Origin: a virus
Taxonomy: Duplodnaviria > Caudoviricetes
Length of the DNA stretch: 64,000 bases
Strand: one strand, 5' to 3'
Virus record (IMG/VR): IMGVR_UViG_3300045958_000007
Coordinates: 1-64,000 of that record
Shown here one piece after another: positions 6,410-37,082 of the stretch (its first letter is position 1; every line of letters starts with the position of its first letter). Below the pieces are notes generated by a model that was not told the origin of the DNA, ran no database searches, and saw nothing but the letters and a program-made list of their open reading frames with translations. The position numbers and the translations under genes were made by a program.

Positions 6410-7243
6410 TTAGTCGACGTCTCCGGTGTAGCGGTTCCAGCCGCTCCGTCCGCGGATCGGCATGATTCCGGGGTTCACGTCCATCTGCGGGGTCGGGGCG
6501 TTCATCGACTCGATCGCGGCGGCCGAGCGCAACGCCTCGGCGCGGGTGTCGTCAGTCACCGATGCCCCCTGCTCCTTGAAGACGCTCGCCAGGCGGACCG
6601 CGAGGTTATTGACGAACCAGTCTTCGTAGCCGTCCGGCCAACTCACCAGGTCGTTGACCGTGGCGAGTCTTGATAACGTCTGCCATGTGTACAGTTCGAG
6701 CTGGTCGGCCCCGGTGTCCTGCGTCCAGATGTAGACGTTGGCGGTCGGATAGGCGTAGTCGCAGTAGAGGACGGTGGGGACGCCGTTCGGAATATCCTGC
6801 AGCCGCATCCCCGCCCACTGCTGGTTGTCGAAGATCCGCATCGGCAGATGCACCGGCGCGGCGCCGCCGGGCTGCAGGAGCACGAGATTGGCGCGGTCGA
6901 TCGAGTCCGTCCCCGGGCGCACGCTCGTCCCGCTGGTCGAGATCAGGGTGCCGCCCGGCCCGAGCGTGTACTGCTTGACGCCCGCCTGGAGGTTGTACAG
7001 ATCGCTCCGCAGGCTATAGACCATCAGGCGGTTGGTATTCGCCTGCCCGATCATCAGGTTGCCCTGCCTGAGACAGTCGCCGAGCTGGTCCGGGCTTGGG
7101 GCCCGTGCGCCGGCATCGGCGAAGCGCGTCACCCCGGCGAGGCGCAACGCCATATAGAAGAGATCACTGACTTTCGTGCCCTGCGGCGCGGTGCCGGTTC
7201 CGCTACCCCCGCCACCCCAGAGAGAAGATCCGAAGGTGCCCAT
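6410..7243 (-). CDS. Head-tail adaptor, P22 gp4-like (paralog 1)
   Basis: VSDLFYMALRLAG, LQAGVKQYTLG, WPDGYEDWFVNNLAVRLA; aligns by eye with 9409..10104. Confidence 0.65.
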   Translation of the reverse strand: MGTFGSSLWGGGGSGTGTAPQGTKVSDLFYMALRLAGVTRFADAGARAPSPDQLGDCLRQGNLMIGQANTNRLMVYSLRSDLYNLQAGVKQYTLGPGGTLISTSGTSVRPGTDSIDRANLVLLQPGGAAPVHLPMRIFDNQQWAGMRLQDIPNGVPTVLYCDYAYPTANVYIWTQDTGADQLELYTWQTLSRLATVNDLVSWPDGYEDWFVNNLAVRLASVFKEQGASVTDDTRAEALRSAAAIESMNAPTPQMDVNPGIMPIRGRSGWNRYTGDVD

Positions 7244-9387
7244 TACTGCCCCATATCCAGCCAGACCGAGCCGTTGTAACAGAGGCTCACCACTCCGGTA
7301 GCCGCGTAGGCGTTGGCGATGTTGTTGGCGGGATTGAGGTGAGATTTGATCGCGAGCGCGGTGCCTCCGTTTAGCGCGAAGGTGTTGGAACCGGCCTGGA
7401 GGGTGTGGGCCAGTTGAACCTGTACGCAGACCCCCGGATAGAGGTTCGCATTTGTCAGGCTCCCTGCAATGGCGTTGGCCGAGCCCGACTCGGTGGCGAT
7501 GTAGTTCAGCGGGCGCCCGAAGGTCAGAGTGTTATTCGTCGCGTTCGGCACCGTCAACCACTTGTCCCCGCCATTGACGGAATAGATCAGGTTCGGCGTG
7601 GCGAAATCGGCGCACTCCCGGAACCCCGAAATGTTGTCCACTCTGAGGGTTTTGCACGCCTGGAACTGGCGGCCCTCGACGTCGATGCCGCCCACGGTGT
7701 TCTTGCCGGTTTCCAAAACGTGAACGCCATAGGAGGTGCTGGCGTTATCCGCCACCCCAACCCGATACGCCCACTGCTGATTTCCGTAGGAGTCCGACCC
7801 GAAAAACATTCCGGAGGGCCATACAAGATTGCTGTCTACCCCGTCGTCTCGCACCAGTCCGTTGAACTTGATGAAGTCGGCGCCATATACGCCGGTGATC
7901 GTCTGCCCGCTGAAGCTGCCGAAGCCCGTGCAAGCCGAGCCGGAGGGATTCTGAGCCGCCACCAGCACGTTGTTGGAGTCCAGGATAGAGAAGATCTGGA
8001 AACGGCCCGAGAGCTGCGACCATGCTCCCGTCCCGCCTGAGAGCCACATATACTCGTTCGCCTGCGAGAACTTATGGCCGGTAATCGTGAGCTGGCATTG
8101 GTTGCCGCTGGCTACGGCATTTGAAATCGTAAAGGTTGAAGTGCCGATCAGGTTAGAGGCGATCCACGGCTGATTAAAGATGATGCCGCCGGGGAAGTTT
8201 ACGTTGCCTGTCGTCGGCGTGAATTTGACCTGCGTGCCCGACGACCATCCCTCGATGGACACGTTATCGAACACCGAGGAATCCACGAACCGCAATTCCA
8301 TCGCTGCGTTCGTATTACTGCCAGAGCCCCGGATTTCGATGTCCCGCGCGTAGAGGCGCGCCACGTCGAAGCTATCGGCGTTCCAGGCGGCGGCGCCGAT
8401 CACCCAGGCCTGCGAGTTCGTCCCCGCCGGCGTGATGAGGATGTGCTCGAACGTCCCCGGGCCGGCGCCCGCCTGGTTGATGCCGGCCATATCGTAGGCC
8501 TGAATCAGGATCCCCTTTGATGTGCAGGAGTCGATCAGCAATCGCGCGAAGTAGTAGTCCTGCGGATGCTCCAGATCGAGGCACGTCCCCGCGGTTCCCG
8601 CTCCATCGAAAACCAGGTCGGTAATCGACGGGCCCGTCATCGGCCCGTTGAGCGTGAGCATGGTGCCGTTGGTGCTGCCGGCCCAGAGGATGTGACTCGC
8701 TCCGGAGACGGAGATCAGATCGCCCGAACCGCCCGCGCCCTGCAAGCGGATGTTGTTCGTGGTGGAGTTCGCGCTCGATGAGCCGTTCCCCATCGTGAGG
8801 GTGGAGGTAATTTTGTAAGTGCCTGGGGGGAAGTAGACCGTGCCGCCGCTAGTGGGCAGGGCATTGATGGTGCTCTGAATCGCCGTCGTATCGTCCGCCG
8901 TGCCGTTGCCCACGGCTCCGAAGGTCTTAACATTCAGCGCAATATTCGAGAGGTGTGTGCCGAGAGCAGTCTCGAGGGCGAGAGTCGCGGCCTTCAGGGA
9001 CTGCTGGTGCGCTGCGTCGATCAGAACCGACATCACGGCTCCGACCGCGTGGGACCGGGCCGACGTCCCCGCTACTCCTCTGGTGACGGTGAGGGCCTGG
9101 CCGTTCACGGCCGTTACCAGCATGTGCTCCCAGGCCGTGCATTTGGTCACGCCCGTCGCTACCTGCGTGGTCGAGTCGCAGATGGTGACGATCATGTTCA
9201 CGGCGAATCCGGTGCCGCTCGCGACGATCGCGACGTTATCCGTAGGGGCCATCGCGAGGCTGATCGTCGTCTGGACGTTATCCGCCGTGATGAACAGCGT
9301 TGAGTCGGTATCGAGGGACCCGGGGTAATTCGTGGTCTGCGCGGAGAGGCCGCAGGCAAAGAGGACTGCCAGAATAAGATTTCGCAT
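7243..9387 (-). CDS. Tailspike/depolymerase with pectate-lyase-like beta-helix and Sec-type signal peptide
   Basis: LNVKTFGAVGNGTADDTTAIQ...GGTVYFPPGTYKI beta-helix cap; N-terminus MRNLILAVLFACGLSA-Q. Confidence 0.8.
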   Translation of the reverse strand: MRNLILAVLFACGLSAQTTNYPGSLDTDSTLFITADNVQTTISLAMAPTDNVAIVASGTGFAVNMIVTICDSTTQVATGVTKCTAWEHMLVTAVNGQALTVTRGVAGTSARSHAVGAVMSVLIDAAHQQSLKAATLALETALGTHLSNIALNVKTFGAVGNGTADDTTAIQSTINALPTSGGTVYFPPGTYKITSTLTMGNGSSSANSTTNNIRLQGAGGSGDLISVSGASHILWAGSTNGTMLTLNGPMTGPSITDLVFDGAGTAGTCLDLEHPQDYYFARLLIDSCTSKGILIQAYDMAGINQAGAGPGTFEHILITPAGTNSQAWVIGAAAWNADSFDVARLYARDIEIRGSGSNTNAAMELRFVDSSVFDNVSIEGWSSGTQVKFTPTTGNVNFPGGIIFNQPWIASNLIGTSTFTISNAVASGNQCQLTITGHKFSQANEYMWLSGGTGAWSQLSGRFQIFSILDSNNVLVAAQNPSGSACTGFGSFSGQTITGVYGADFIKFNGLVRDDGVDSNLVWPSGMFFGSDSYGNQQWAYRVGVADNASTSYGVHVLETGKNTVGGIDVEGRQFQACKTLRVDNISGFRECADFATPNLIYSVNGGDKWLTVPNATNNTLTFGRPLNYIATESGSANAIAGSLTNANLYPGVCVQVQLAHTLQAGSNTFALNGGTALAIKSHLNPANNIANAYAATGVVSLCYNGSVWLDMGQ

Positions 9388-9408
9388 GGAATTGGGTGTT
9401 GGGTTGGT

Positions 9409-10104
9409 CTACTGCTGGCCTTGCGGCGCGGCCGGCTGGGGGTTCTGCGGCGCCGACATGGCATTCTGTTCGACGAGTGCCGCCTTGGCTTCCTGCGCCG
9501 CCGCCCATACCGCCTGCGCCAGCGAAGGCCTGCCCCACTGCGGGTGAAGATCCTTGGCGAGCAGCTTCACGAGCAGGCGGAGCCAGCCCTGCGGCATGTT
9601 CACGGTGTCGTTGACGGTCGCGAAGTTCGCGAGCGGGGTCCAGTACGCCAACTCAAGCGTGCCGGGGGTGTAGGAGGGCGGTGGAAACACCCGCACGTTG
9701 ATGAGCGGATACGCGGTGTCCGCGCCGACGATGGCCGGAATGGAGGTCTGCTCACCGAGCGCCTGTTTTGCCATCTCGCCGAACTCCGGCATCGAAAGCA
9801 CCCGGCCGCCGGAATGCAGGATGGTGCTGTAGTACGCGCGCCAGGCCGTGACTTTCATGGCGCGCAGGCCCCCGGCGGTGGAGAAGGTGCCCCCTGAGCC
9901 GAGAGTGTACCCGGTGACGCCCGCCTGGAGGCTGAACGCCTGCTCGACCTGGGTGGGGACGGTCAAGCCCTCGGCACTCAGCATGTCGAGGATCGGGTTC
10001 AGGCGGTTGTAGGCGTCCGTCTGCATCGCCGAGGTGATCGTCTCGGTGGGGGTGATGGTGCCGATGTCGATAAATGCGGTGTTGATGATGTCGCTGACTA
10101 GCAT
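9409..10104 (-). CDS. Head-tail adaptor, P22 gp4-like (paralog 2)
   Basis: LVSDIINTAFIDIG, LQAGVTGYTLGSGGT, ATVNDTVNMPQGW...LLAKDL. Confidence 0.7.
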   Translation of the reverse strand: MLVSDIINTAFIDIGTITPTETITSAMQTDAYNRLNPILDMLSAEGLTVPTQVEQAFSLQAGVTGYTLGSGGTFSTAGGLRAMKVTAWRAYYSTILHSGGRVLSMPEFGEMAKQALGEQTSIPAIVGADTAYPLINVRVFPPPSYTPGTLELAYWTPLANFATVNDTVNMPQGWLRLLVKLLAKDLHPQWGRPSLAQAVWAAAQEAKAALVEQNAMSAPQNPQPAAPQGQQ

Positions 10105-10114
10105 GGGGATGGCT

Positions 10115-10840
10115 TTAGCAACTGCTGGAGGTGAGCAGGCCGCCCGAGAAGGTTTCCGTACAGGTAGTGCCCGCGCTGTTCTTCATGGTCTGGCTGTGGG
10201 TGACCCCCGCCGCACCGCCGACGCTGAACCCGGTACTGGCGTTGATCGCGCCGGTGGCGTCGACCGGGTAGCCCGGCGAGGCGTTGCCTCCGAAGCCCAC
10301 GCGGCCCGTGGTGAGGTCCACCGTGAGGCTGCTGGTCCCCGGCCAGACGAACGTACTCCCGGCGGTCAATCCGTTGGCGTAGTCGATGCGGAACACGCTC
10401 CCGGACTTCATCAGCCGGGCGGCGGTGGTCGAGCGCGCCACGTAGGCGGCGCCGCTGTACTCCGCGTCCCAGAGCATCTCCTGGTCGTCCGCGGCCTCGG
10501 AAAGCAGGGCGAGTGCGCCCGCCGCGTTGGCCTGCAGCTTGATCTGGTTCACCCCCGGGGCCGCCGCCGGGTTCAGGTAGAGCGGCGACGCGCTGGTGAT
10601 GAGCCCTGTGCCGGAGGGCGTGAGCGTGACGTTCTGGTTGCTTCCGCCGGCGAGAATCGAGATTGCGCCCGACGACGCCGAGACGTGCGCCGGGGTGGCG
10701 TTCTCCATGAACACGAGAGCGTTGGGGATCGCGGCGTTGCCCCCGGTGAGCACCGGCGCGTGATTCGCCGCCAGCACCCCCAGTTGAACGCCGGCGAAGG
10801 CGGCGAACAAGACCGCCGCGAGAGTAAGGATCCGTCTCAT
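10115..10840 (-). CDS. Short fibre/needle-like protein with signal peptide
   Basis: ATG 10840 in ATGA overlap; MRRILTLAAVLFAAFAG hydrophobic leader; GRVGFGGNASPGYPVD fibre motif; ends CTETFSGGLLTSSSC. Confidence 0.55.
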   Translation of the reverse strand: MRRILTLAAVLFAAFAGVQLGVLAANHAPVLTGGNAAIPNALVFMENATPAHVSASSGAISILAGGSNQNVTLTPSGTGLITSASPLYLNPAAAPGVNQIKLQANAAGALALLSEAADDQEMLWDAEYSGAAYVARSTTAARLMKSGSVFRIDYANGLTAGSTFVWPGTSSLTVDLTTGRVGFGGNASPGYPVDATGAINASTGFSVGGAAGVTHSQTMKNSAGTTCTETFSGGLLTSSSC

Positions 10841-11358
10841 GCTGCCATCCCTGTGGTGTGCTGCCCGATTTGCACGTACTTGCCGCCCGAGAGCCGGAAG
10901 TGAAACGTCGTGATCGTGTTGGCGCTGGTGTCGATATCGGAGGAGACCCCCGAAAACCCGGTGCCCCAGAGGGGCGAGGGGGCGCCGCTGCCGTCCGGCC
11001 GCAGAATCACGTCGAGCGCGCCGGCGCCAGTCGTCGGGGCCTGAATCGTGGAGGACGTCGATTTGAGCACCTGGTCGATGAGCTGCGTCCCGAAAATCCA
11101 AACCCATCCCATCGAGGCCGGGGACTGCTTGACCTGCCACTGGTAGATCAGGCCTGTGTCGGTCTCGATCCAGAGGGTTCCGTTGGGAATCCCTTGCGTG
11201 TCGAGGGCCTTGCGCGATGCGCTCGTGCCGAACTGGACGATGCCCCCGCCGGTCGCGGCCGAGTCCCGCACCGCCTGATAGAAGAGGTACCAGTCCCGGC
11301 CGAAGAGCCCGTTTACGAGCGGCGGGTTCGATTGCTGCGGAACGATCGGAACGTCCAC
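10837..11358 (-). CDS. Tail protein at the gp26 (needle) position
   Basis: 173 aa directly after gp10-like gene; N-terminal PLV...RDWYLFYQAV; synteny. Confidence 0.5.
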   Translation of the reverse strand: MDVPIVPQQSNPPLVNGLFGRDWYLFYQAVRDSAATGGGIVQFGTSASRKALDTQGIPNGTLWIETDTGLIYQWQVKQSPASMGWVWIFGTQLIDQVLKSTSSTIQAPTTGAGALDVILRPDGSGAPSPLWGTGFSGVSSDIDTSANTITTFHFRLSGGKYVQIGQHTTGMAA

Positions 11359-11359
11359 C

Positions 11360-13513
11360 CTACGCTACCCCGGCCTCGTACTCGATATCGAGGTCGATCA
11401 GCATCAATTGATACTGGCCGGTGCCCGAGAGTCGGAATACCCGGTCGCGCGAGGCGCTGGTCCCGGCCCAGAAAACGCGCTGGCTGTAGGCTCCGGCCAC
11501 GCCGGCGCCGCCCGTCACCGGCGAAATCGGATAAACGAAGGTGTTGCCACGGTCGTCGGAGTAGTCCCGCGTGATGGTCGGCTGTATCGTCGCCGAGCTC
11601 GTGGTGCCGGTTGCCACCTCGAGCGTCATGCGTCCGAAAAACTGGAGGACGCCGGCGGCGTAGAAGTGCGGCAGGACGCGGATCCACTTCTTGTCTGCGC
11701 CGTTGTCGTCGAAGTAGTTGAGGTTCACCTCGTAGAAGCTGCCGGAGGCGAAGTCGCAACCAATATGCATCCCGGCCGGTCCCCACTCCGGGATGAAGGT
11801 GTGGAACCGCGGCACGTAAGACGCGAACGCCGATCCGGTCCAGGCCGCCCGCTGGTGCCAGATCGGCGTCCCCGCCTGTTGGCTCGCGGTTTCGTCGTAG
11901 ACGTATGTGTTCAACGCTCCCGGAAAGTTGATGACCCAGAACTGATGCCCGTCGTGGACTTCCGGGTAGGCGATCGCGCCCGATGGAGTATCGATCCCGG
12001 AGGCCCAGGCCGCCTCTTCGGCGTGCGTCGAGATGCGGGTCGGGGTGAAGCCGTCGATCCGGTACGCGATGGGCGTCCCGCGCGGGCTGCCCCCGAGGTA
12101 GTAAATCCTCTCGCTCATCGCCACCGGCGCGTAGCGCGCGACACTGCCCTCGCGAGCCGCCGCCCCGCTGATCCGCTGAAACGGAAACGTGGGGTCGCCG
12201 GTGTTCTGCCAGACTTCGCTTTCCTCGCTGCCGAAGATGTAGAGCTGCTCGTGGTCTGCGAGGACCGACTGGATGTAGTCGGGCGCCCCCTCTTTGGTCG
12301 CGAAATCGAGCGGGTCCCAGGTGGTGCCGTCGAAGGGGGCGGAGATGTTGAACTGGCCGCCGAGGTCAGCTCCCACCGCGGCGGTGTAGGTTACTCCCGT
12401 GAGCGTGCCCGGCGAAACGCTGACCAAGAGAAGAGTCGCACTTACGACATCGACCACCGTGTAGTTGAGCCCGGCAATCGTGATCTTCTGGGTTGGCACG
12501 ATCTCGTCGAACATGCTGCCGCTTACCCAGTTGACGGTCGTTCCCAAGGTGCTCACGGTGCCGCTCAAGGTCTGGAGCGTTGCCGTGAAGGCCGCGCCGG
12601 TCTGGGTGCCGGCGCCCCCGGTGAGCGTGATGCTCGTCGAGGAATTGACCGTCTGGATGTCGTATGCAATTCCGCTGATGACGATCTGCTGGCCCGCGAT
12701 CAGCCGCGCGAAGTTGTCCCCCGAGGTCCAGGTAACGGCCGTGCCGCTGGTCGACACGACGCCCCGGAGCTGCTGCGGCGGGCGCTGCACGATGAAATAG
12801 CTGTCGAGGTATGCCCCCGTTACCGCGGTCACGGGATCGCCGTAAGCGGCGGCGTAGGTCGCGCCCGTCTGCGTGCCGGCGCTCGCCCCGAGGGTGAGAC
12901 TGGTTGCGGAGTTCCAGGTGACGCTGTACGGCGTTCCGTCGATCAGGATGTAGCCGCCGTTCATGGACGACGGAAACTCATCCCCGGAGACCCAGGTAAC
13001 CGCCGTACCGGAGGTATTGACCGTGCCGCTGATCTGGAAGTGAGCGATGGCGGGGCCCGAGCCCTCATCGATGTAGGCGTAGCCGTTCTTGACGATCAAG
13101 AGCTGGTTGCCGTTGCCGAACATCTGCCCCGGGTAGCCGTCCGAGGTCGAGCCGGTAAGCTGCTGCTTGGTAATCATCGCCCCCGAGCCCGTGGAAGGGT
13201 TGCCCCCCACGTAAGAGCCGATGCCCAACTCCCACAGCCAGGAATTCCCGCCGGCAACGCCGTTGGAGTCGTCGGTGAGGACGAACAGCCGGCCTCCGCC
13301 CGACCAGGCTCCGCGGAAGACGTGCCCCGACGTGCTGCCGAGCGTGTTCACGTCGCCGATCTTGTGGTACCCGGGCGCGAATTCGAGGATGCCCTTGTTC
13401 TTGCCCTGCTCGTTGGGGTCGTCGATGAACTGCGGAATCAGGTTCATCGTCTGCTGGCAGGCAGCGGCCGGGTTGCGCAGGGTGTAGGACTGGCCGACTA
13501 AAGGGACTTTCAT
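11360..13513 (-). CDS. Tail hub/DNA stabilization protein, P22 gp10-like, with three inserted ~60 aa repeats
   Basis: MKVPLVGQSY..., TWDPLDFATKEGAPD, IFGSEESEVWQNTG, ISTHAEE, SDDRGNTF, QRVFW...SRDRVFRLS. Confidence 0.85.
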   Translation of the reverse strand: MKVPLVGQSYTLRNPAAACQQTMNLIPQFIDDPNEQGKNKGILEFAPGYHKIGDVNTLGSTSGHVFRGAWSGGGRLFVLTDDSNGVAGGNSWLWELGIGSYVGGNPSTGSGAMITKQQLTGSTSDGYPGQMFGNGNQLLIVKNGYAYIDEGSGPAIAHFQISGTVNTSGTAVTWVSGDEFPSSMNGGYILIDGTPYSVTWNSATSLTLGASAGTQTGATYAAAYGDPVTAVTGAYLDSYFIVQRPPQQLRGVVSTSGTAVTWTSGDNFARLIAGQQIVISGIAYDIQTVNSSTSITLTGGAGTQTGAAFTATLQTLSGTVSTLGTTVNWVSGSMFDEIVPTQKITIAGLNYTVVDVVSATLLLVSVSPGTLTGVTYTAAVGADLGGQFNISAPFDGTTWDPLDFATKEGAPDYIQSVLADHEQLYIFGSEESEVWQNTGDPTFPFQRISGAAAREGSVARYAPVAMSERIYYLGGSPRGTPIAYRIDGFTPTRISTHAEEAAWASGIDTPSGAIAYPEVHDGHQFWVINFPGALNTYVYDETASQQAGTPIWHQRAAWTGSAFASYVPRFHTFIPEWGPAGMHIGCDFASGSFYEVNLNYFDDNGADKKWIRVLPHFYAAGVLQFFGRMTLEVATGTTSSATIQPTITRDYSDDRGNTFVYPISPVTGGAGVAGAYSQRVFWAGTSASRDRVFRLSGTGQYQLMLIDLDIEYEAGVA

Positions 13514-14244: not shown

Positions 14245-14261
14245 AACTTTTGCAATAACGG

Positions 14262-14304
14262 AAAAATCGGGGCGGCGGCGCCTCGAAACGGGAGCCGCCG
14301 CCCC
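14262..14304 (-). terminator. Intrinsic terminator after coat/decoration genes
   Basis: 11-bp stem ggggcggcggc/gccgccgcccc followed on minus strand by a T5 tract. Confidence 0.75.
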
Positions 14305-14329
14305 ATGGCTGAGGAGGAGAGAAGGGGCC

Positions 14330-15283
14330 TCAGTAAACCAGCATCACGGGCCCAACGCTGGCCGTGAAGGTCGTAGTCGGAGTGATCGCGGCCAGGGTGC
14401 CGAACGTGCCCGTCTGCGAGCCCGTCCCGTAGTTGGTGGGGGCGCCGGCGGTGGCGTAGGCCTGGAACGTGTCGGTGGTGCCGTTCCCCTGGAGCGCGAT
14501 GAAATAGGTCTGCGGACCCACCACCCGCACCGTCGAAGTGAAGTTGATGCATTGGTACTTCGAGGCGGTGGCGGTGGTAGTTCCGGCGGTGGCGGTATTC
14601 GCGATCAGGGCTCCCGAGGAGTCGTAGAGCGCGAAAATCCACTTATCGGTGGCGACCGTCGCACCGTTCAGCACGCACGCGCCCGTGAGGGTCGCATCGT
14701 TGCCGATGTTGAGCTGGGAGAACCAGATCTTACCGGCCACGTCGGTCACGGAGGCGTTACTGATGGCGGTCGGCGGAACGAAGGTGGAGAACGCGGTAAA
14801 CGGCTGCGTCTGGAGCTCCGGCAGGTGGCCGTGCTGCCACGCGCCGGCCACGCAATAGTTCCAGTGGCCGGTGCGGACGTTGAGCCGCGGGTTGTTGACG
14901 AGCGCCGAGGCGGTGCAGGCGCCGGAGGCGTCGTTCGGGCCGTTGTCGAAATAGCCCGGAGGCCCGAAGTAGACGAGTTCGCCGACGAGGTGCGCGGTAC
15001 GCATGCTGCCGTTCTGGCCGCGGCGGACGGTCCAGATGTTGCCGGTGACGTTGGCGACGACTTCCATGTATTCCCGGCCCACGAAGAGGCCGGTCATGAC
15101 CTGGTTGTTGGTGCCGAGAGCCGCAACGCTGATGGTATTGGGCGAGCCGCCGGTGGAGGCCGAGAGCACGATCATGGTGTCCTTGGCCGACATGGGGGAG
15201 GCGATGGTGACCTGCGGGGTGACTTCCTGCGCGAACGCGAAAGCCACCAGCAGAAGAGTGGAGGCAATCAGTTTTTGAAGCAT
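14330..15283 (-). CDS. Probable capsid decoration/accessory virion protein with Sec signal peptide
   Basis: First gene after coat; MLQKLIASTLLLVAFAFA-QEV; module EYMEV...TVRRGQNGSMRTAHLVGELV shared with tailspike N-terminus. Confidence 0.6.
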   Translation of the reverse strand: MLQKLIASTLLLVAFAFAQEVTPQVTIASPMSAKDTMIVLSASTGGSPNTISVAALGTNNQVMTGLFVGREYMEVVANVTGNIWTVRRGQNGSMRTAHLVGELVYFGPPGYFDNGPNDASGACTASALVNNPRLNVRTGHWNYCVAGAWQHGHLPELQTQPFTAFSTFVPPTAISNASVTDVAGKIWFSQLNIGNDATLTGACVLNGATVATDKWIFALYDSSGALIANTATAGTTTATASKYQCINFTSTVRVVGPQTYFIALQGNGTTDTFQAYATAGAPTNYGTGSQTGTFGTLAAITPTTTFTASVGPVMLVY

Positions 15284-15357
15284 GTTGATGGGTTTTCCTT
15301 TTTAGCTGGATGGGGAGGCGGCTAAACGCCGCCGCCCCGTCTTTGGTTTCGCGGGAA

Positions 15358-16614
15358 TTAGCCGCAGATGCGCACGCCCCAGTCGCCGCGCTGCGCAACC
15401 CAGCCGAACATGATGTCGCAGCGGGTAGCAAAGATGTCGTTCACGATGTCGTACTGGGACACCGTGCGGATCGACATCCCGGTGGCGGGATCGGTGGCGC
15501 GCTTCGCCATCTCGACCGCGCGGGGCAGGTCGAGCGGCACGCAGGCCCAGGCGTAGGCTTCCTTGTGGAAGGCCATCGCCTGCGGGGTCAGCGTTCCGGC
15601 GGTGCCGAACAGGGTCAACGCCGCGCCGGAGAGCGGAGTCGTGTTGCAGGTGGCATACGGATTCGGCAGGCCGTTGTTGTTGGTGCCGACCGCGATCGCC
15701 GGGTAGATGGGCACCACGCCGTTGCCCGAGCCGTCCGCGTTCACCGGAGCGGTGACCACGAACTGCCGCAGATCGCTCAGGGTGTCGCCCGAAACCGGGT
15801 TCACCGCGTAGATCGGGGTGCCCCCGACGCCGAGCGTGAACACGTCGCCGGCGTTATAGACGTTCTGCGCGTTGGGGGTGAGGCCGTTGATGACGAGGGC
15901 GCTGCCGGTCTGGCCCGCGCCGTTGACGACCGGGGTGCCCGCGCCCGAGCCGATCGTGTGGGTGCGGATGTTCTGGGCGAGCAGCCAGTCGAAGCCGGCG
16001 CCGGTGCCCATCCGCCCTTTGAGGTACTGCTTTTTGATCTGCTCCGAGCTCTGGAACAGGCCTTTCAGGGTATCGATGATCTGGGTCTGGAACTTCGACG
16101 CGATCACCATGTACCGCTGCTCGTCGATCGGCGCCGAATTGCGGTCCAGGGCCTCGAGAGCGGAGAGGTACGTCTGGAAGGCGGTCGAGCCGTTGGGCAC
16201 GCTGCCGGGGGTGCCGACCACGTTCGGAGTAGCCTGGTAGGCCACGGTGAGGCCGACCACTTCGGCGGCGTTCGACAGCGCGATCGCCGCGCCTTCGATG
16301 TAGCGTTCGCCGATGCGGTCGATCGAGAGCGTCTGTTCGGCCGAGGTGAAGCTGAAAGCGGTGTGCTTGCGCTGGTTGATGACCAGCGGGATTTTCCGCT
16401 CTTCGACGTCCTGGATGACCAGGTTGGCGCCGTCGACGGCAGCGAATCGCACCGGATCCCGGAGCGAAAGGGTGTCGCCGATCTTGGCGCCCGGTTTGGC
16501 GAAGTGCTCGGACCAGTCTTCGTGGTGAACGGCTTTGGCAAAGCCGAGGTTGTTTTGGAAGCGCCGCAGCAGTTCGTTGGTGATGATCTGCGGCGTAAGA
16601 ATCGTATTGGACAA
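15358..16614 (-). CDS. Major capsid protein, P22 gp5-like
   Basis: 418 aa; MSNTILTPQIITNELLRRFQNNL, KIGDTLSLRDP, AFHKEAYA, TRCDIMFGW. Confidence 0.9.
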   Translation of the reverse strand: MSNTILTPQIITNELLRRFQNNLGFAKAVHHEDWSEHFAKPGAKIGDTLSLRDPVRFAAVDGANLVIQDVEERKIPLVINQRKHTAFSFTSAEQTLSIDRIGERYIEGAAIALSNAAEVVGLTVAYQATPNVVGTPGSVPNGSTAFQTYLSALEALDRNSAPIDEQRYMVIASKFQTQIIDTLKGLFQSSEQIKKQYLKGRMGTGAGFDWLLAQNIRTHTIGSGAGTPVVNGAGQTGSALVINGLTPNAQNVYNAGDVFTLGVGGTPIYAVNPVSGDTLSDLRQFVVTAPVNADGSGNGVVPIYPAIAVGTNNNGLPNPYATCNTTPLSGAALTLFGTAGTLTPQAMAFHKEAYAWACVPLDLPRAVEMAKRATDPATGMSIRTVSQYDIVNDIFATRCDIMFGWVAQRGDWGVRICG

Positions 16615-16620
16615 GGGGAC

Positions 16621-17733
16621 TTACCTTTTCTTGAGCTGCGCCTCCCGCGCTTTGACCCACTTGGCGTAATCGTTGGCGTCCTGGTCCGACATGGGATCGG
16701 CTTGAGGGGCTAATGGTCTTCCGCCGAGGTGGGCGGGAGGGCGCGAGGCGCGCGATGGCTGTTGTTTCGGTTGCGGTTTTGGGGCAGGCTTCGGCGCTGC
16801 GGCTCCGGGCTTGGCGGCGCCCTTATCGGCGGCGGCGCCCTTGGCGGGCGGCGCAATCCGGGTGCGGATCTCTCCGAGCAGCATGCCGGCGCGGGCGAGG
16901 GCGACCCCCCATTCGCGCTCGTTGGTGGCGAGCGTCGAGCGGGCGATCTTCTCGGACTCCTCCGGGTGCTGGCCGAGGTAGTAGGCGATCTCGGTGCCGG
17001 CTTCCGGGTCCATGCGCATCACGGACTCCATGGCGGCCGAGATCTTCACCGCGGGATTGGCAACGACCTCGTTGTAATCGGCAAACCTTGCGGCGGCGCG
17101 ATTCCATTCGGCCTGCGCGGAAGTCCGCGCGTGCTCTTCCTCGAGGGCCTGCTTCTGCTTCGCCAGGGCGGCGGCTACCTTGCGCTCGGTGAGCGCCTGG
17201 TTGTAGGCGTCGAGCGCCTCCTCGTACTGGTCCCAGGCGGATTTCTCGTCGGTGTCCTCGAAGTCCCGTAGCATCGGGCGGGCGAGCGGCTTGTCCGCCT
17301 CCTCGTCCACTGTTTCCGTGGAGGACGCTGCTTCCTCCGTAGCTTCCTCTCCCTCCTCCCCTCTGGTGAGGGCATCGAGGCGGGATTGGAGCTCCGCGAT
17401 TGTGCCGGTCAGCTTCCGCATGCGCCGGGCGAGGCGCTTATCCTTCTCGGGCTCCTGTTCCTGGGCGGCCTGTACTTCTTCCTGCTCCGCTTCTCCCCCG
17501 GGCTCCGACTCCGTGGCGCTTTGGCCCTCCCGGATTTCTTCTTCTTCCTCGGAGGACTCGGATGGCGGCGTGACTCTGGCGCCCGCCGCGGGCGCTTCTT
17601 CTTCCTGCTCTTCGGCCTTCGCCGGCACCTCGCCGGTCTCGCGGAAAGCCACGAAGGATTCGTAATCCTCCGGGATCTCTACATAGTCCTGGTCGGTCTG
17701 GGCGACGAGGGCGTCAGTTAGTTCGGACTGCAT
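16621..17733 (-). CDS. Scaffolding protein
   Basis: Acidic N-half, PLARPMLRDFE, C-terminal DYAKWVKAREAQLKKR; directly upstream of coat. Confidence 0.75.
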   Translation of the reverse strand: MQSELTDALVAQTDQDYVEIPEDYESFVAFRETGEVPAKAEEQEEEAPAAGARVTPPSESSEEEEEIREGQSATESEPGGEAEQEEVQAAQEQEPEKDKRLARRMRKLTGTIAELQSRLDALTRGEEGEEATEEAASSTETVDEEADKPLARPMLRDFEDTDEKSAWDQYEEALDAYNQALTERKVAAALAKQKQALEEEHARTSAQAEWNRAAARFADYNEVVANPAVKISAAMESVMRMDPEAGTEIAYYLGQHPEESEKIARSTLATNEREWGVALARAGMLLGEIRTRIAPPAKGAAADKGAAKPGAAAPKPAPKPQPKQQPSRASRPPAHLGGRPLAPQADPMSDQDANDYAKWVKAREAQLKKR

Positions 17734-17813
17734 GCGTTTGGGTGTTTCTCCAATGCGGGGATGTTCGCGGCGTACAAAGCCCACCGCTGGGCGGGTACTG
17801 CTGAAGTCGTGAG

Positions 17814-19299: not shown

Positions 19300-19307
19300 G
19301 GGTTCGG

Positions 19308-26102: not shown

Positions 26103-26587
26103 TTCTCCCTCCAGACCAGGGTGATGTTTGCGGTTCCCGTGATCGAGGAAATCGTCACGGTGTAATTGGCTCCTGTCCCGGCTCCCGCTCCGAAAGACAG
26201 CTTGGAGAGGTCCAGGTTGATCGTGTTCGGCGCCGAAGCGAGGTGGGTGATGCCGCCGATCGCCGTCCCCGCCCCTACGTTCGATGCGGTCCAGACCGTG
26301 GCACTCGCCGGAGGACCTCCGGGCGGCAGCGCGGCCGCCGTGCCGGCGGTTGCGGTCGCGGCCGAGCCGTTGACCGATTGCGTGATGTTGCAGGTGACCG
26401 AGCAGTAGACCACGGCGGTTTCGAGCTGCAGGAGTTTCCCCCCACTCGCCGGCTGCTGGATCGTGAAGCTGGTCCCGGCGGCGGTGAGGTTGACGTCGCC
26501 AGTTGTGGCCGAGTAGCGATACTGCGCCAGCGCGCAGGCGGGCAGAAGACAGAGCAGCAGAGCGATGCTGCGAAGCGGGAATTTCAT
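26099..26587 (-). CDS. Exported beta-rich protein
   Basis: MKFPLRSIALLLCLLPACALA-QY; CSVTC. Confidence 0.6.
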   Translation of the reverse strand: MKFPLRSIALLLCLLPACALAQYRYSATTGDVNLTAAGTSFTIQQPASGGKLLQLETAVVYCSVTCNITQSVNGSAATATAGTAAALPPGGPPASATVWTASNVGAGTAIGGITHLASAPNTINLDLSKLSFGAGAGTGANYTVTISSITGTANITLVWREK

Positions 26588-28387: not shown

Positions 28388-28389
28388 GG

Positions 28390-28740: not shown

Positions 28741-28774
28741 CGGGTTTACTTGCCTGCGGTCTGGCGCGCTCGCT

Positions 28775-30307
28775 CTAGCCGCGCATCCAGCCGGAACTGC
28801 CGTACATCGAGCCGGCGAACTCGTCCATCTCGTCGTCGTCGTCGCCACCCTCGGGTTCGGGCGGCGCTACCGGCTGCGCGAAGGTGAGGGCCAGGGCGTC
28901 GGCGTCGTCGGGGCTCGCGATGCCGCGCTCCTTCATGTCTTCCTTGGACTCGATCACCAGCTTGGAAGACTGGTTGATGTGGTAGCCCGGCCCGGTGAGC
29001 TGCAGCGCCAGGTCCTCCTCGTCGGGAATCGCGCCGCGGAGCAGCCAGTCCTTCATCTGCGCCCACATATAGGCGCGCCAGTTGAATTGGTGGGGGTCCG
29101 GGCTCCGGCCCCCGAAATTCACTTCAAAAACATTGTTGAACCCCAGCGCCTTCAGCCGTTCGTAGATGGCCGCGCCGAATGCCGAGTCGATGAACAGGGC
29201 CGCGATCTTGCGGCCCGGCCGCTGGTCCCGCAGCAGTTCCGCCGCGACTCCGACCAATACGCTGCGGTCGCGTCCCTGCTCGCCGGTAATCCGCACCGGC
29301 GCGATCGAGCGGGCATCCAGGCCGCGGCGAAATCGGATCACGTTCCACGCCGCTCCCCCGCCCGACACGTCGAAGCCCGCGATCAGGGGCTCGTCCTTCA
29401 GGGCTTGGGCTGCGCGCTTGCGGGCGTCGTTCACCCGGCCGTTGTCGATAAACTGGAGCTCGTCGGCCAGGGGCGGCTGGCCGAGCACCCGAACCCGCAC
29501 GAAATCGCTGTCGATCCCGTACTGCTGGATCCACTTCTCGATCAGCGGCTTGTTCGCAAACCGCGAAGTGCGGGAGTCGACGGAGTGCCGGATCCAGTCG
29601 TCTTTCTCCGAGCCGAAGCAGACGCGGTGAAAAGCGCCCGAGTTGCGCACCGGCTGGCCCCAGGCGAACCACATGGGCTCCCCGTCCGTGAGACCGCCCT
29701 TGGCCGTCTCCCAGATCGCATCCGGGACTTCGGAGGCCTCGTCGAAGAGGTACCAGCTCGTCGAATTCTTGGCGTGCTGGCCGGCGAAGGACTGCGCATT
29801 CTCGGCCTTGCAGGTCTGCGCCAGGATCTTCCAGGTTTCGGGGTCGGTCTTCGCCTTGATCGAATCCGCCCCGATATCGAACCAGCCTCTCACCATCAGG
29901 AGCTTCGTCCATCGCCGGATGGCGGCCCAGGTGCGGCTCTCGAGCTGGGTGTAGGTGCCGGCCGTGACGGTGCCGATCGAATAACGCCGGGTCGAGAGGA
30001 TCCAATTTGCGATCCACGCGCCCATCGAAGACTTGCCGGTGCCGTGGCCGGAATTTTCGGCCAACTGGATCGGCATTACGGGGTCGCGGCCGTTGAACCC
30101 ACGTTTCCGGACTTCCTCGCCGAGATCCCGGAGAAATCGCGCCTGGTTGTCGTCGGGCCCGGTCTCGTGCTCCAGCTCGCCGGGCTCGCCCCACGGGTAC
30201 GCCCAAATCACGAACCGCAGGGGATCGTCGTAGAACCGCCGGCGGATGAACTGGTAATCGTCCTCGCTGAACCGGACTTCAGGCGCTTGGCTTCTTTTCG
30301 CTTGCAT
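28775..30307 (-). CDS. terL: Terminase large subunit
   Basis: Walker A SGHGTGKS, Walker B LFDEAS, nuclease GFDVSGGG and SPDDADALALTF. Confidence 0.92.
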   Translation of the reverse strand: MQAKRSQAPEVRFSEDDYQFIRRRFYDDPLRFVIWAYPWGEPGELEHETGPDDNQARFLRDLGEEVRKRGFNGRDPVMPIQLAENSGHGTGKSSMGAWIANWILSTRRYSIGTVTAGTYTQLESRTWAAIRRWTKLLMVRGWFDIGADSIKAKTDPETWKILAQTCKAENAQSFAGQHAKNSTSWYLFDEASEVPDAIWETAKGGLTDGEPMWFAWGQPVRNSGAFHRVCFGSEKDDWIRHSVDSRTSRFANKPLIEKWIQQYGIDSDFVRVRVLGQPPLADELQFIDNGRVNDARKRAAQALKDEPLIAGFDVSGGGAAWNVIRFRRGLDARSIAPVRITGEQGRDRSVLVGVAAELLRDQRPGRKIAALFIDSAFGAAIYERLKALGFNNVFEVNFGGRSPDPHQFNWRAYMWAQMKDWLLRGAIPDEEDLALQLTGPGYHINQSSKLVIESKEDMKERGIASPDDADALALTFAQPVAPPEPEGGDDDDEMDEFAGSMYGSSGWMRG

Positions 30308-30896
30308 CGAACTCGGCGAGCCGTTTCTCGGCGGCTTCGAGCCTGCGCCCGAGGATTACGGAAAGGTTGATCGTCTGCGTCTGCTGCGGCGCCTTCCACT
30401 GCCCGCGCTCGATGGCGGCCTGCTGCAGGATGGCCCGCATCTCGGCCGACGTCGCGTTGTCGATCGCGTATTCCGGCACGGGCTCCGATACCCGGTTGCC
30501 CCGCTCGTCGACGCGGGTCTCCATTTTGTACGTGACCGTGACGAGGCCGGAATCGCCGCCCGGGACGGCCGCCATACCCTCGCTGTCGCCGCGCTTCTCG
30601 ATCGCGCGCTTCAGCCGCAGGTAGTGGTCCTGCAGCTCGCGCATGCGCCAGTCCGGATCCGCCACTCCTTCGGTCCGCGCATCGCGCCTCCAGTCCTCGG
30701 CGTACTCCTGGACCTTCTTTTGAAAGGCCGGATCCGCTTTCCACCGCCGGAGGGTGCGGTCCGTGACCCCGATCTTGGCCGCGATCGCCTCGGAGGTGTC
30801 GCGGGCCTCGGCCAGCAGGCGGGCTGCGTACACCTGCTGCTCGGTGAGCTGCTCGGAGGGCGGCACCGGGGGAGCCGGCGTGTTCGATTCGCTCAC
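30279..30896 (-). CDS. terS: Terminase small subunit (HTH)
   Basis: IAAKIGVTDRTLRRWKADPAF HTH; overlaps terL start. Confidence 0.75.
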   Translation of the reverse strand: MSESNTPAPPVPPSEQLTEQQVYAARLLAEARDTSEAIAAKIGVTDRTLRRWKADPAFQKKVQEYAEDWRRDARTEGVADPDWRMRELQDHYLRLKRAIEKRGDSEGMAAVPGGDSGLVTVTYKMETRVDERGNRVSEPVPEYAIDNATSAEMRAILQQAAIERGQWKAPQQTQTINLSVILGRRLEAAEKRLAEFDASEKKPSA

Positions 30897-33662: not shown

Positions 33663-33735
33663 ACAACCTCGCGGCGCGGTATGCCAGCGCCTTGTCGGGC
33701 GGACTCGGGCTGCAGGGGAGAGCAGCCGGGTCGGC

Positions 33736-33993: not shown

Positions 33994-33995
33994 AG

Positions 33996-36011: not shown

Positions 36012-36250
36012 TACTTCTTGAGGCCCGCGGACACCATGAACATCGTTCCGATGGCCCCGCCCAGCAGGAGCACCAGCATCCCGAGACCCGTCATCATCAT
36101 GGTTTTGAGCGAGTCCAGCTTGCCGTCCATCCTGACGATCGCCTCCTCGTTCTTGCCGATTTGCTCGTGCAGGTTTTCGATTTTCGCGCCGTGCTCCGCC
36201 ACTCGGCTGGCGAGGGGATTTTCGGCGGAGATGGCGGTCGGGCTGGTCAT
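36011..36250 (-). CDS. Holin-like protein (coiled coil plus C-terminal TM, XhlA-like)
   Basis: 79 aa; heptad segment then TGLGMLVLLLGGAIGTMFMV. Confidence 0.5.
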   Translation of the reverse strand: MTSPTAISAENPLASRVAEHGAKIENLHEQIGKNEEAIVRMDGKLDSLKTMMMTGLGMLVLLLGGAIGTMFMVSAGLKK

Positions 36251-36434
36251 GGCGCATTACCGGGGCGGCCCTACGCTGGGATAGCGGCGGGCAAGGAAGG
36301 TTCGGGGCGGAGATCTTTTACCAACGGCGTCGGCTCCGGCTCGTGGGGGCAACCGTCGTCGGCCATGCGGTCGAGTTCGTGTTCTTGCTGAGGGCTGTCT
36401 TCGGCCACGCGATTTGCTGCCGCTGGGAACGCGG

Positions 36435-37082
36435 TTACTGGTTGACGCAACTGCCCGAGACCGCGGCGTTGACTACCCGCTGGATGTCGACGAGGCCGAA
36501 CGTGGATCCACTGCTGAGGCTCTTCAGGCTACCGACACCGCTGACTACCTGGGACACTGCCGCCACTACGTCGAGCGCGTTGGTTGCGCCGTCGCCGTTC
36601 AGATCGCAGGGGGAGAGCAGGGGGATGTTGACCGCCGGGCCCGCGGCCGTGGCGACGGCGCTTCCGGCGAGTGACGCCGATAGGGTGTTGGTCAAGGTGA
36701 ACGAGGGGCCCGTGGTGTTGGCTGAGGTGAACGGGCTGATGGGCGCTACCGGCACCGCGACGGTGGCCACCACGCCGTCCGCCAGGGTGTTGCTGTTGAC
36801 GCCGTAGAGGACGCAGGTGGTCGTCTGCTGCGCGTTGGCGCCACACTGCACGGTTTTCTGGGCGGCCGTCGCCGCCGGTCCGGCGGTGACCGTGGCGCCG
36901 GACGGAACGGTGAAACTCCACTCCGACGCCGCGATGTTCTGGCCGGCCGAGCCGGCGAGGTTGATGCTGACGGTAGCGGTCTGCCCCGGCCGCGTGGCCG
37001 GCGCGGATACGCCGAGGCTGGGCCCGCTCTGCGCGATCGCGAGCGAGGCCAGCAAGAGGGTCATCAGGAGGATTCTCTTCAT
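36435..37082 (-). CDS. Exported cohesin-like plus dockerin-like protein
   Basis: MKRILLMTLLLASLAIA-Q; AGPAATAAQKTVQC; CDLNGDGATNALDV EF-hand-like loop. Confidence 0.65.
   Translation of the reverse strand: MKRILLMTLLLASLAIAQSGPSLGVSAPATRPGQTATVSINLAGSAGQNIAASEWSFTVPSGATVTAGPAATAAQKTVQCGANAQQTTTCVLYGVNSNTLADGVVATVAVPVAPISPFTSANTTGPSFTLTNTLSASLAGSAVATAAGPAVNIPLLSPCDLNGDGATNALDVVAAVSQVVSGVGSLKSLSSGSTFGLVDIQRVVNAAVSGSCVNQ

Follow-up and report, generated by a model that had tools for sequence, protein, structure and literature searches.

Tailed-phage particles are built in the cytoplasm, which raises the question of why several late genes of the phage studied here, including a tailspike gene, encode leaders of the secretory type. 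The window analyzed is a stretch of 64,000 nucleotides, whose contig is circular and represents an uncultured P22-like podophage of about 72.7 kb. The phage is probably temperate and, judged from sequence comparison, its host is a soil Acidobacteriota bacterium of the Bryobacteraceae type. The late genes and hairpins described below lie on the minus strand.

Leaders on late proteins

A sequence-only reading had proposed seven leaders; all seven are present, and the ORFs translate as it described. Every one of them consists of one to three K/R residues, a hydrophobic run of 12-20 residues and small residues at -3 and -1; a simple sequence rule for leaders was applied to these and to the other late proteins alike. 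Gln at +1, which it assigned to five of them, was found in 7243-9387, 14330-15283, 25011-26102, 26099-26587 and 36435-37082. The 23272-25014 gene starts with GTG and has Ala at +1. The AxA leader assigned to 10115-10840 stands only in part: it is the least canonical of the seven and lacks the A-x-A cleavage site followed by Gln, but the N-terminus of its relatives is of the K/R-plus-hydrophobic kind. An eighth leader protein (193 aa) is encoded at 64150-64731, just beyond the 64,000-nt window.

The division of the late proteins into leader-bearing and leaderless ones was borne out under this rule, the coat, portal, scaffold, both adaptor-like, gp10-like, needle-like and ejection proteins all scoring leaderless. 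They include the P22-type major capsid protein (15358..16614; phrog_283, E = 1e-62), the scaffold (16621-17784) and portal (19308-21575) of a segment that also holds a DNA methyltransferase region (16621..21575; phrog_156, E = 3e-124, phrog_8865 and phrog_363), and the gp10-like tail hub (717 aa), which is followed by the needle-like 173-aa protein (10837..13513; phrog_578, E = 3e-59). The needle-like N-terminus recurs in the related loci L007, L008, L033 and L034. The small and large terminase subunits (28775..30896; phrog_7344, phrog_2 and phrog_5902) are leaderless as well. All parts needed for DNA retention in the head lack leaders, which occur only on peripheral, last-added kinds of protein. 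The phage leaders match those of a host-type Bryobacteraceae genome, +1 Gln included: in the MAG compared, a contig of which carries a coat gene 63% identical to that of the phage, 8 of about 13 exported CarboxypepD_reg proteins have a predicted cleavage site between A/G/S and Q.

Conservation of the leaders and the cysteine signature

Among homologues of the protein encoded directly after the coat gene (hereafter the post-coat protein), 86 of the 88 with at least 250 aa passed the leader rule, as did all 28 homologues of the tailspike N-domain. Position -1 is A/G/S in 70/70 sequences of the post-coat alignment, and +1 is Gln in 68/70 of these and in 28/28 tailspike N-domain relatives. The leader sequences vary, yet 83/86 and 28/28 homologues, respectively, retain the charge, the length of the hydrophobic run, small residues at -3 and -1 and Gln at +1; because of this conservation, the leaders are more than chance. 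Conservation of the mature proteins starts exactly at the +1 Gln.

The cysteine content pointed out earlier also holds: the mature leader proteins contain 43 Cys in 2628 residues, compared with 15 in 8153 residues of 14 leaderless late proteins (odds ratio 9, Fisher p = 1.8e-15). In the post-coat protein, Cys123 and Cys144 are either jointly present or jointly absent (57 vs 13 sequences), while Cys203 and Cys245 occur in 66/70 and 65/70 leader forms and are both missing from 24/24 leaderless relatives with the same domain. In the tailspike N-domain, the invariant Cys70 and Cys83 flank a loop of variable length. Since the leaders are conserved and host-like, the +1 Gln is essentially invariant, Cys is enriched and one Cys pair comes and goes with the leader, export and oxidative folding of the leader proteins are well supported by several independent sequence statistics. 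A host secretion signal on the tailspike, the decoration-like protein and several late proteins of fibre-like or sugar-acting type implies folding outside the cytoplasm, and the leader-bearing parts would thus almost certainly fold outside the compartment in which tailed-phage particles are built. Export and disulfide bonding as proposed in the sequence-only reading therefore find support, but its treatment of the seven proteins as one class was wrong.

Virion-type and sporadic leader proteins

The set looks mixed, with three virion-type proteins in fixed gene order (post-coat, tailspike and 241-aa fibre-like) and five sporadic cargo proteins. The modular tailspike (7243..9387; 714 aa) gave hits to PF12708 (E = 5e-14) as well as to four PHROG families of tail spikes. 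It consists of a 16-residue leader, an N-domain (residues ~17-150), a helical neck and a putative pectate-lyase-type beta-helix, for which the Pfam and PHROG matches are confined to residues 39-221 and the full model is poor. Gln17, Cys70 and Cys83 are the invariant residues of the N-domain. Its 28 homologues are 48-72% identical over the N-domain and differ in the length and family of their C-termini, all of them being leader-bearing; a conserved N-domain with swapped C-domains resembles the pattern of virion-attached receptor-binding proteins. Two leaderless adaptor paralogues with 28% identity to each other, one of 231 aa without Cys (9409..10104; PF24175 SU10_adaptor, E = 7e-8, and phrog_12985) and one of 277 aa (6410..7243; phrog_12985, E = 2e-17), enclose the tailspike gene, and the order adaptor, tailspike, adaptor occurs in three phages, namely this one, L033 and L034. 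In this genome, the searches brought up neither a spike nor a side fibre without a leader.

The post-coat protein (14330..15283; 317 aa) comprises an 18-residue leader, a small beta-barrel N-module (~21-114) and a CBM-like beta-sandwich (160-317). Its gene comes right after the coat gene both here and in every relative examined (L002-L005, L007-L010, L033 and L034); in L010, where the post-coat protein (P0116) is only 33% identical, the coat stop and the post-coat start even overlap. In the AF2 model (pLDDT 86), the C-domain resembles the cement protein gp25 of cyanophage A4 (9jwb_Z; Z 16.3, rmsd 2.8 A over 147 residues) and also matches phage fibre tips. The profile of the N-module matches those of 8vjh, a minor tail protein, and 8rk3, a tip protein of the gpJ type. 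Some other proteins encoded in Acidobacteriota genomes contain the module but no leader, and one of these starts like a tail fibre. The module that the tailspike and the post-coat protein had been said to share was confirmed by hhalign (probability 97.9%, E = 4.6e-13), although plain BLASTP detects it weakly (E = 0.12). The post-coat gene is flanked by GC-rich hairpins. One, with a U run, directly follows it (14245..14329; dG -36.5 kcal/mol, z -2.9) and is also found in L007, L033 and L034; the other lies between the coat and post-coat genes (15284..15357; dG -25.8 kcal/mol, z -3.0), only 27 nt from the post-coat start codon, and is likewise found in relatives.

The third virion-type candidate, a small fibre-like protein of 241 aa (10115..10840), has a long hydrophobic N-terminus, and its start overlaps the needle-like stop; one public annotation places the start ten codons downstream. 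Four relatives (P0300-P0302 and L033:15300-15911) have a K/R-plus-hydrophobic N-terminus ending in G-(A/S), followed by N-x-Q-P, and in L033 the gene again follows the needle-like gene. No leader-bearing large fibre besides the post-coat protein was seen in L007 and L009, in which the receptor binder may be a leaderless central fibre.

The remaining five proteins (esterase, collagen-like, 162-aa, dockerin-like and 193-aa) appear to fit better as free exported enzymes or surface proteins. The SGNH-type carbohydrate esterase (23272..25014; 580 aa; phrog_4201, E = 1e-48) has its catalytic domain directly behind the leader, with the GQSLS motif beginning about 12 residues past the leader, and 13 Cys in its mature part. 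Among its 2007 relatives, many are bacterial-type exported proteins, and 67 of the best 150 passed the leader rule. The 363-aa protein (25011..26102) has, by its translation, 8 mature Cys and a short collagen-like G-X-Y run; its Atlas neighbours are viral collagen-repeat proteins with scores under 0.9, so the collagen link is only a lead. A 162-aa protein (26099..26587, from translation), without a match in the family searches, is the first in this overlapping three-gene cluster, which is missing from relatives where the terminase is directly followed by the portal. The 215-aa protein (36435..37082), whose translation shows 4 Cys and a dockerin-like D-L-N-G-D-G motif, is encoded outside the structural block, overlapping the stop of a LuxR/GerE-type regulator gene and downstream of a NusG-like factor.

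Proposed two-compartment assembly, rival readings and known systems

The eight late-strand genes with host-type Sec/signal-peptidase I leaders would, by virtue of these leaders, yield products that cross the inner membrane and form periplasmic disulfides, the core being the virion-type trio of a lectin- or cement-like post-coat protein, a modular tailspike and a small fibre-like protein. Coat, portal, adaptors, gp10-like hub, needle and ejection proteins would form DNA-filled, plugged particles in the cytoplasm; at lysis, holin lesions would join cytoplasm and periplasm, allowing the pre-folded, oxidized appendages to bind the particles, while the remaining five leader proteins would act free on the envelope or slime layer. 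The sequences show the leaders and how well these are conserved, the disulfide signature, folds of virion type and the order of the genes; export itself and attachment to the particle we infer. We consider joining at lysis plausible, just short of an even chance. P22 heads without tailspikes are stable, and adding tailspike in vitro renders them infectious; the Dec protein of phage L binds capsids that are already complete. On the other side, we know of no described tailed-phage assembly pathway in which any part is periplasmic. The two hairpins that bracket the post-coat gene might delimit a transcription unit of its own, and CBM-like and beta-helix domains equally suit free exported lectins or enzymes, both of which also speak against joining at lysis, as does the apparent lack of a leader-bearing large fibre, other than the post-coat protein, in L007 and L009.

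A reading that we hold to be a real though lesser prospect is that all eight proteins are exported and none enters the particle. Such a late secretome would cut or de-acetylate slime or O-antigen and bind sugars, and might free progeny, strip receptors from debris and infected cells or block superinfection, the conserved N-domains serving trimerization or envelope anchoring. The esterase, with its start right past the leader and its likeness to many enzymes that bacteria export, fits this, as does the absence of the 23272-26587 cluster from relatives; moreover, a tailspike fold is also reported for exported enzymes of bacteria, such as Pantoea WceF (PMC7949094), and Q-rule proteins of Porphyromonas phages have been read as host modifiers (PMC10367356). 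However, the phage would then be left without spike or side fibre. The tailspike gene is nested between adaptor genes in three phages, and the post-coat gene stays fixed beside the coat gene across relatives, even at 33% identity of its product (P0116 of L010, overlapping the coat gene there). Both N-modules are, in addition, domains of phage structural proteins, and leader proteins are annotated as MS-detected in the virions of two cultured phages.

The alternative offered by the sequence-only reading, lysogen surface proteins, suits the sporadic genes and fits the conserved ones poorly; that the leader genes serve lysogenic conversion, as morons which the prophage expresses to alter the lysogen surface, seems improbable to us. 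The phage does look temperate (tyrosine integrase, 40638-41567), a related prophage in L009 is adjacent to host genes, the post-coat gene has a hairpin on either side, GC content falls to 0.61 across 24-26 kb and the dockerin-like gene is beside regulators. On the other hand, the tailspike and 241-aa genes overlap or nearly abut their neighbours, with gaps of -4 to 21 nt that leave no room for their own promoters; the post-coat start codon is only 27 nt from its hairpin, consensus promoter scans remained at chance level, and the presence of the post-coat gene in every relative examined is unlike the patchy distribution of morons. Still more doubtful is a reading in which the hydrophobic N-termini play no part in export, being mis-called starts, bypassed by an internal start giving a cytoplasmic form, or serving on the cytoplasmic side as a membrane anchor or a handle for assembly. 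The later public start of 10115-10840, the nearly invariant tailspike Met46 as a possible second start and a host showing no Shine-Dalgarno pattern by which to judge starts would allow this, but leader features kept in 83/86 and 28/28 homologues despite sequence variation, and conservation beginning exactly at the +1 Gln, argue against it, and the Cys excess and leader-tracking Cys pair are hard to explain in cytoplasmic proteins.

Joining at lysis can be set beside several known systems. A precedent is offered by the GenBank records of Cellulophaga phages phi18:3 (gp085-087, NC_021794) and phi10:1 (gp091-094, NC_021802), which contain proteins with clear leaders ending in A/G before Gln, annotated as structural 'based on experimental MS/MS proteomics analysis', one phi10:1 protein being a pectate lyase. 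As here, large late proteins of fibre or pectate-lyase type bear host-type Sec leaders with +1 Gln, leaders are missing from the head, portal and internal proteins, and the phi18:3 leader genes are clustered close to the terminase and away from the head genes, like 23272-26587. Unlike here, the host belongs to the Bacteroidota and there is no leader-bearing capsid-adjacent protein; BLAST found no similarity between these phages and ours. MS detection in purified phages is compatible with co-purifying proteins. No discussion of the Cellulophaga leaders was found in print, with Holmfeldt et al. 2013, which we take to be the source paper of the MS/MS annotation, lying outside the search.

The Q-rule proteins of Porphyromonas gingivalis phages also copy the host leader style, with cleavage exposing Gln, but these proteins, of unknown function and read as host modifiers (PMC10367356), differ from the virion-type domains seen here, and the Q-rule was described as Bacteroidetes-specific (PMC5837995), whereas the host here is of the Acidobacteriota type. 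Lambda Lom and Bor and signal-peptide endolysins are likewise Sec substrates among late genes, without virion-type modular architecture and with a patchy occurrence in contrast to the fixed gene order found here. The podophage-encoded auxiliary cement protein gp25 of cyanophage A4 (9jwb chain Z), which sits on the capsid surface via an N-terminal anchor (PMC12002296), shares the CBM-like beta-sandwich of the post-coat protein (Z 16.3); the likeness is one of fold, from a predicted model, at 12% identity, and gp25 has neither a leader nor the N-terminal beta-barrel. The same type of sandwich also tips many phage fibres. The tailspike has no sequence match to the head-binding domain of P22 gp9, but shares with gp9-type tailspikes and podophage fibre anchors a conserved N-terminal domain, exchangeable beta-helix enzyme domains, a gene placed among adaptor and hub genes and, presumably, attachment as a last assembly step independent of DNA retention; what sets it apart from gp9 is a leader predicted to be cleaved, together with an invariant Gln at +1 and, within the anchor domain, a Cys pair of disulfide type.

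Genome organization and host of the phage

The virus record is 72,928 bp long (~66% GC), its first 64 kb forming the window, and no tRNA genes were found in it. Its ends overlap, positions 72802-72928 repeating 104-230 and positions 1-105 repeating 259-363; the true genome is therefore a circle of ~72.7 kb. A P22-like gene block forms one long run on the minus strand, comprising the small and large terminase subunits (28775-30896), portal (19308-21575; phrog_156), scaffold (16621-17784; phrog_8865), coat (15358-16614; phrog_283), a gp10-type hub (11360-13513; phrog_578), a needle-like protein (10837-11358), two SU10-type adaptor paralogues with 28% identity (9409-10104 and 6410-7243) and ejection proteins (2748-6014). 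The P22-type coat, portal, scaffold and gp10-type hub stand in the order usual for P22-like podoviruses, and records of relatives list PF11651, PF16510 and PF11134. Three adaptor paralogues (64-70% identity) lie in tandem at 6095-8263 of the related locus L002. The long minus-strand block is headed by the genes of a NusG-like factor (38197-38775) and of a zinc-ribbon-containing regulator of the LuxR/GerE type (37079-37414). The ORF at 27381-27851 has no match in Pfam or PHROGs; a gene at a similar position in the related locus L007 has a faint Cpn10 match on record, and in the Cellulophaga phage phi18:3 two genes annotated as GroES lie close to the structural genes that bear leaders.

The ORF running from 2717 to 231 continues in frame across the circle junction into 72928 to 65741 (locus L046, G000:C1:65741-72928). 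The joined protein of ~3,220 aa contains no Cys, carries a lytic transglycosylase at its N-terminus and is presumably an ejected internal protein; apart from this transglycosylase domain, no endolysin was recognised. A 65-aa ORF (63956-64000 in the window, running to 64153) looks like a holin gene; its product contains two hydrophobic segments and ends in a basic tail. The nearest coat genes (63% identity) belong to IMG/VR contigs and to one contig of a peat-derived Bryobacteraceae metagenome-assembled genome (MAG), which points to a host in the Acidobacteriota. A tyrosine integrase gene, together with a related prophage adjoining host genes (L009), suggests that the phage is temperate.

Leaders and cysteine content of the late proteins

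A sequence-only reading had proposed that seven late ORFs carry Sec signal peptides and that outer virion parts are exported, disulfide-bonded and added at or after lysis. We defined a leader as a hydrophobic window preceded by K/R, with no acidic residue and with small residues at -3 and -1. All seven ORFs, which lie on the minus strand at 7243-9387, 10115-10840, 14330-15283, 23272-25014, 25011-26102, 26099-26587 and 36435-37082, translate as originally written and were picked out by this rule, as was an eighth (64150-64731) just past the window end. The coat, portal, scaffold, adaptor, hub, needle and ejection proteins are leaderless by this rule, none of them being flagged. All eight proteins have the basic n-region and the h-region of ~8-20 residues expected of Sec substrates of signal peptidase I, with small residues in positions -3 and -1, and the Gln at +1 claimed for five of the seven is indeed present there and in the eighth protein as well (6/8). 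The initial observation is hence confirmed and extended. The weakest leader is that of 10115-10840, which has a long hydrophobic run and Asn at +1, and whose public gene call begins ten codons later; its four relatives show the same type of N-terminus and the same junction.

The leaders are conserved within families. The 317-aa protein encoded directly after the coat gene (the post-coat protein, 14330-15283) has 127 relatives; among the 88 of at least 250 aa, 86 satisfied the leader rule and in 83 Gln stands after A/G/S at the expected position. An alignment of 70 full-length members showed Ala at -3 in 52, A/G/S at -1 in all 70 and Gln at +1 in 68. Similarly, the N-terminal 150 residues of the tailspike (7243-9387) have 28 relatives, all of them with a leader and with Gln17 invariant; when aligned, they show A/G at -1 in 27 and Gln at +1 in all 28. 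Leader sequences diverge freely among homologues while their character is kept, which is how working signal peptides evolve, and this conservation is our main argument that the leaders are real.

Other origins of these N-termini fit the data poorly. Mis-called starts would not keep leader character across families, and chance hydrophobic N-termini arising from high GC are disfavoured because only these ORFs passed the rule and the homologues agree. Lipoprotein and Tat leaders were rejected, since no lipobox is present, homologues do not retain the leader Cys, and none of the eight has a Tat-type twin-arginine motif. Processing by a prohead protease, which has been proposed to remove leaders from capsid proteins of Porphyromonas phages, was rejected as well: this phage has a scaffold, no protease was found and the coat protein is leaderless.

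Cysteine content follows the same division. The mature parts of the eight leader proteins contain 43 Cys per 2628 residues (1.64%), against 15 per 8153 (0.18%) in fourteen leaderless late proteins (odds ratio 9, Fisher p 1.8e-15), and the Cys of the leader proteins occur in even numbers and close together in sequence. Within the post-coat family, 57 members have both Cys123 and Cys144 and 13 have neither, while Cys203 and Cys245 occur in 66 and 65, respectively, of the 70 leader-bearing members. A leaderless family of ~192 aa (P0085-P0114) is ~50% identical to the post-coat protein in the C-terminal CBM-like domain; in 24 of 24 sampled sequences, the places of Cys203 and Cys245 are taken by Q/S/A/R and Q/R. 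This family has no Cys, and its own conserved N-terminus differs from that of the post-coat protein; one member (L011, 10001-10582) follows a NusG-like gene in a phage-like contig, with no coat gene adjoining it. The tailspike N-domain has two invariant Cys, Cys70 and Cys83, between which lies a loop of variable length. This signature is good evidence that the leader proteins fold in an oxidising compartment, and export with oxidative folding is, as far as sequences can predict it, well supported.

The Bryobacteraceae MAG with the related coat gene provides a view of host leaders. Cleavage of the A/G/S|Q type was predicted in 8 of its ~13 leader-bearing CarboxypepD_reg proteins, and the phage leaders look like these predicted host leaders. 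As Gln directly follows the predicted cleavage site in most of the exported MAG proteins, a habit resembling the Q-rule may exist outside Bacteroidetes, to which the paper describing that rule confines it (PMC5837995). A glutaminyl cyclase of the PF05096 family was not found in the MAG (3.1 Mb, incomplete), the search covering that family alone.

Candidate virion parts and other leader-bearing proteins

The tailspike has a pectate-lyase-type beginning of a beta-helix (PF12708 and PHROG tail-spike matches), and its family of 28 proteins combines a conserved N-domain with exchangeable C-domains of 447-886 aa. A beta-helix enzyme domain behind a conserved N-domain is the architecture expected of a tailspike, and binding to the particle is putative. 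Its gene lies between the two adaptor paralogues in this phage as well as in the related loci L033 and L034. AF2 modelled the whole tailspike poorly (pLDDT 49.6), and the model was left out of the fold search; a complex prediction of both adaptor paralogues with tailspike residues 17-150, run without controls, gave a score of 0.00 and no verdict. Against cultured phages, tblastn matched the tailspike over the beginning of the beta-helix only. The module said to be common to the tailspike and the post-coat protein was borne out when the two profiles were compared (probability 97.9%, E 4.6e-13). Other proteins encoded in Acidobacteriota genomes, possibly of phage origin, carry this module with no leader in front, and one of them starts like a tail fibre. 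The 241-aa protein encoded at 10115-10840 is fibre-like and follows the needle-like gene both here and in L033; an IMG/VR scan with it returned no relatives. Between its post-coat and adaptor genes, L033 encodes a 104-aa protein (8417-8731) in which a collagen-like G-X-Y run comes immediately after an N-terminal membrane-type helix.

For the post-coat protein, a confident AF2 model was obtained (pLDDT 86). Residues 160-317 form a CBM-like sandwich which, among solved structures, is matched best by gp25 of cyanophage A4 (9jwb_Z; Z 16.3, rmsd 2.8 Å over 147 residues), an auxiliary cement protein that forms trimers on the capsid threefold axes (PMC12002296); sandwiches of this type also tip many phage fibres. 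Residues 21-114 form a small beta-barrel with profile matches in the PDB to a minor tail protein and a gpJ-type tip protein, and with fold matches to parts of several virion structures. The gene directly follows the coat gene in every relative examined, the most distant having 33% post-coat identity, and in the related locus L010 the coat stop and the post-coat start overlap. The modelled fold and the gene position together mark the product as a candidate capsid decoration or cement protein, with putative binding to the capsid lattice; no match to it was found in cultured phages by tblastn. Hairpins that are kept in relatives lie on both sides of the gene, the second followed by a U run. These cut both ways, as they could bring about a high joint expression of the coat and post-coat proteins or delimit a separate transcription unit. 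A terminator-like hairpin downstream is what a moron would have, yet the gene is present in every relative and there is no room for a promoter. Scans for promoter and terminator consensus sequences stayed at chance level. In the related prophage L009, the post-coat flanks (9908-10000 and 11024-11131) hold tandem short repeats of the GACGACT/GACTGAC type and not simple hairpins.

The cluster at 26587-23272, which encodes a 162-aa protein, a 363-aa protein with a collagen-like run and a putative 580-aa SGNH-like esterase, has a patchy distribution and lower GC; it was not found in relatives whose terminase directly precedes the portal. In the esterase (23272-25014), a GQSLS motif that is conserved in relatives begins right after the leader. 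This protein matches phrog_4201 (E 1e-48), had no Pfam, NCBIfam or PDB sequence match (the PDB searched by phmmer) and no relatives in an IMG/VR scan, and its 2007 relatives include many ordinary exported bacterial proteins; it is a putative SGNH or sialate-O-acetylesterase-like carbohydrate esterase. The protein at 36435-37082 has a dockerin-like motif and is encoded beside the LuxR-type regulator and the NusG-like factor, outside the structural block; its ORF overlaps the stop of the regulator gene. The eighth protein (64150-64731; 193 aa) contains no Cys, has no family match and is encoded between the giant protein and the small holin-like ORF.

Possible routes of assembly and comparison with known phages

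Morphogenesis of tailed phages is regarded as wholly cytoplasmic. In model phages, the tailspikes of P22 and the phage L protein Dec are the last parts to be added, and their addition can be carried out in vitro. In the present phage, the proteins needed for head building and DNA retention are all leaderless and poor in Cys, leaders occur only on the last-added kinds of parts, and no leaderless spike or side fibre is encoded in the genome, which leads us to favour the following order of events. The three conserved leader proteins would be exported, oxidised and trimmed to Gln; holin lesions would then merge the cytoplasm and the periplasm, and the exported proteins could bind finished particles, while the sporadic leader proteins would stay free and work on the envelope or slime as enzymes or binders. 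The proposal of the sequence-only reading accordingly stands in part: export agrees with the leaders, their conservation and the Cys signature, but the joining of outer virion parts to the particle at lysis is plausible, at slightly less than even chances, for only three of the eight proteins, and the other five are better read as free exported proteins.

In its full form, assembly would occupy two compartments. A DNA-filled, plugged particle would be completed in the cytoplasm; the tailspike, the small side fibre and the capsid-surface lectin would pass through Sec and acquire a Gln N-terminus, possibly cyclised, and disulfides in the periplasm; and docking would be confined to the brief time between the opening of holin lesions and the break of the outer membrane, or would coincide with that break, a trait that may be common to phages of at least Acidobacteriota and Bacteroidota. 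We put this forward tentatively. Its chief rival, a late secretome that never joins the particle, seems to us somewhat doubtful, though it must be taken seriously; such a role was given to the function-unknown proteins with Q-rule signal peptides in a study of Porphyromonas phages, which read them as host modifiers (PMC10367356). That study was the only one found in the literature on phage Q-rule signal peptides, and the paper on Tunturi viruses, which are cultured Acidobacteriota phages, contains no proteomics and does not mention signal peptides (PMC11924767).

If receptor-binding and capsid-surface parts are indeed made in the periplasm, such phages would possess appendages stabilised by disulfides, and possibly capped at the N-terminus, that suit harsh soils, and their host range would depend on the Sec, disulfide and signal-peptidase machinery of the host. 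Periplasmic folding would then be needed to express such tailspikes for enzymology or engineering, and the Cys-rich depolymerases of some uncultured phages would be explained. Even the modest reading describes phages with a late secretome that remodels the sugar coat of the host. Furthermore, the host-type leaders suggest that the rule of Gln after the signal peptide extends past Bacteroidetes.

The closest precedent comes from cultured Cellulophaga phages, which differ from this phage in having no BLAST similarity to it; with 23 proteins of the present phage as queries, tblastn found no match in phi18:3. According to GenBank records, gp085, gp086 and gp087 of phi18:3 have plain leaders ending before Gln, whereas its portal, capsid-type and internal proteins have none, and gp091-094 of phi10:1, including a pectate lyase and a tail fibre, likewise have leaders before Gln. 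All seven proteins carry the annotation 'annotation based on experimental MS/MS proteomics analysis', so that, with co-purification being possible, the records list proteins with leaders among those detected in purified particles from two cultured phages.
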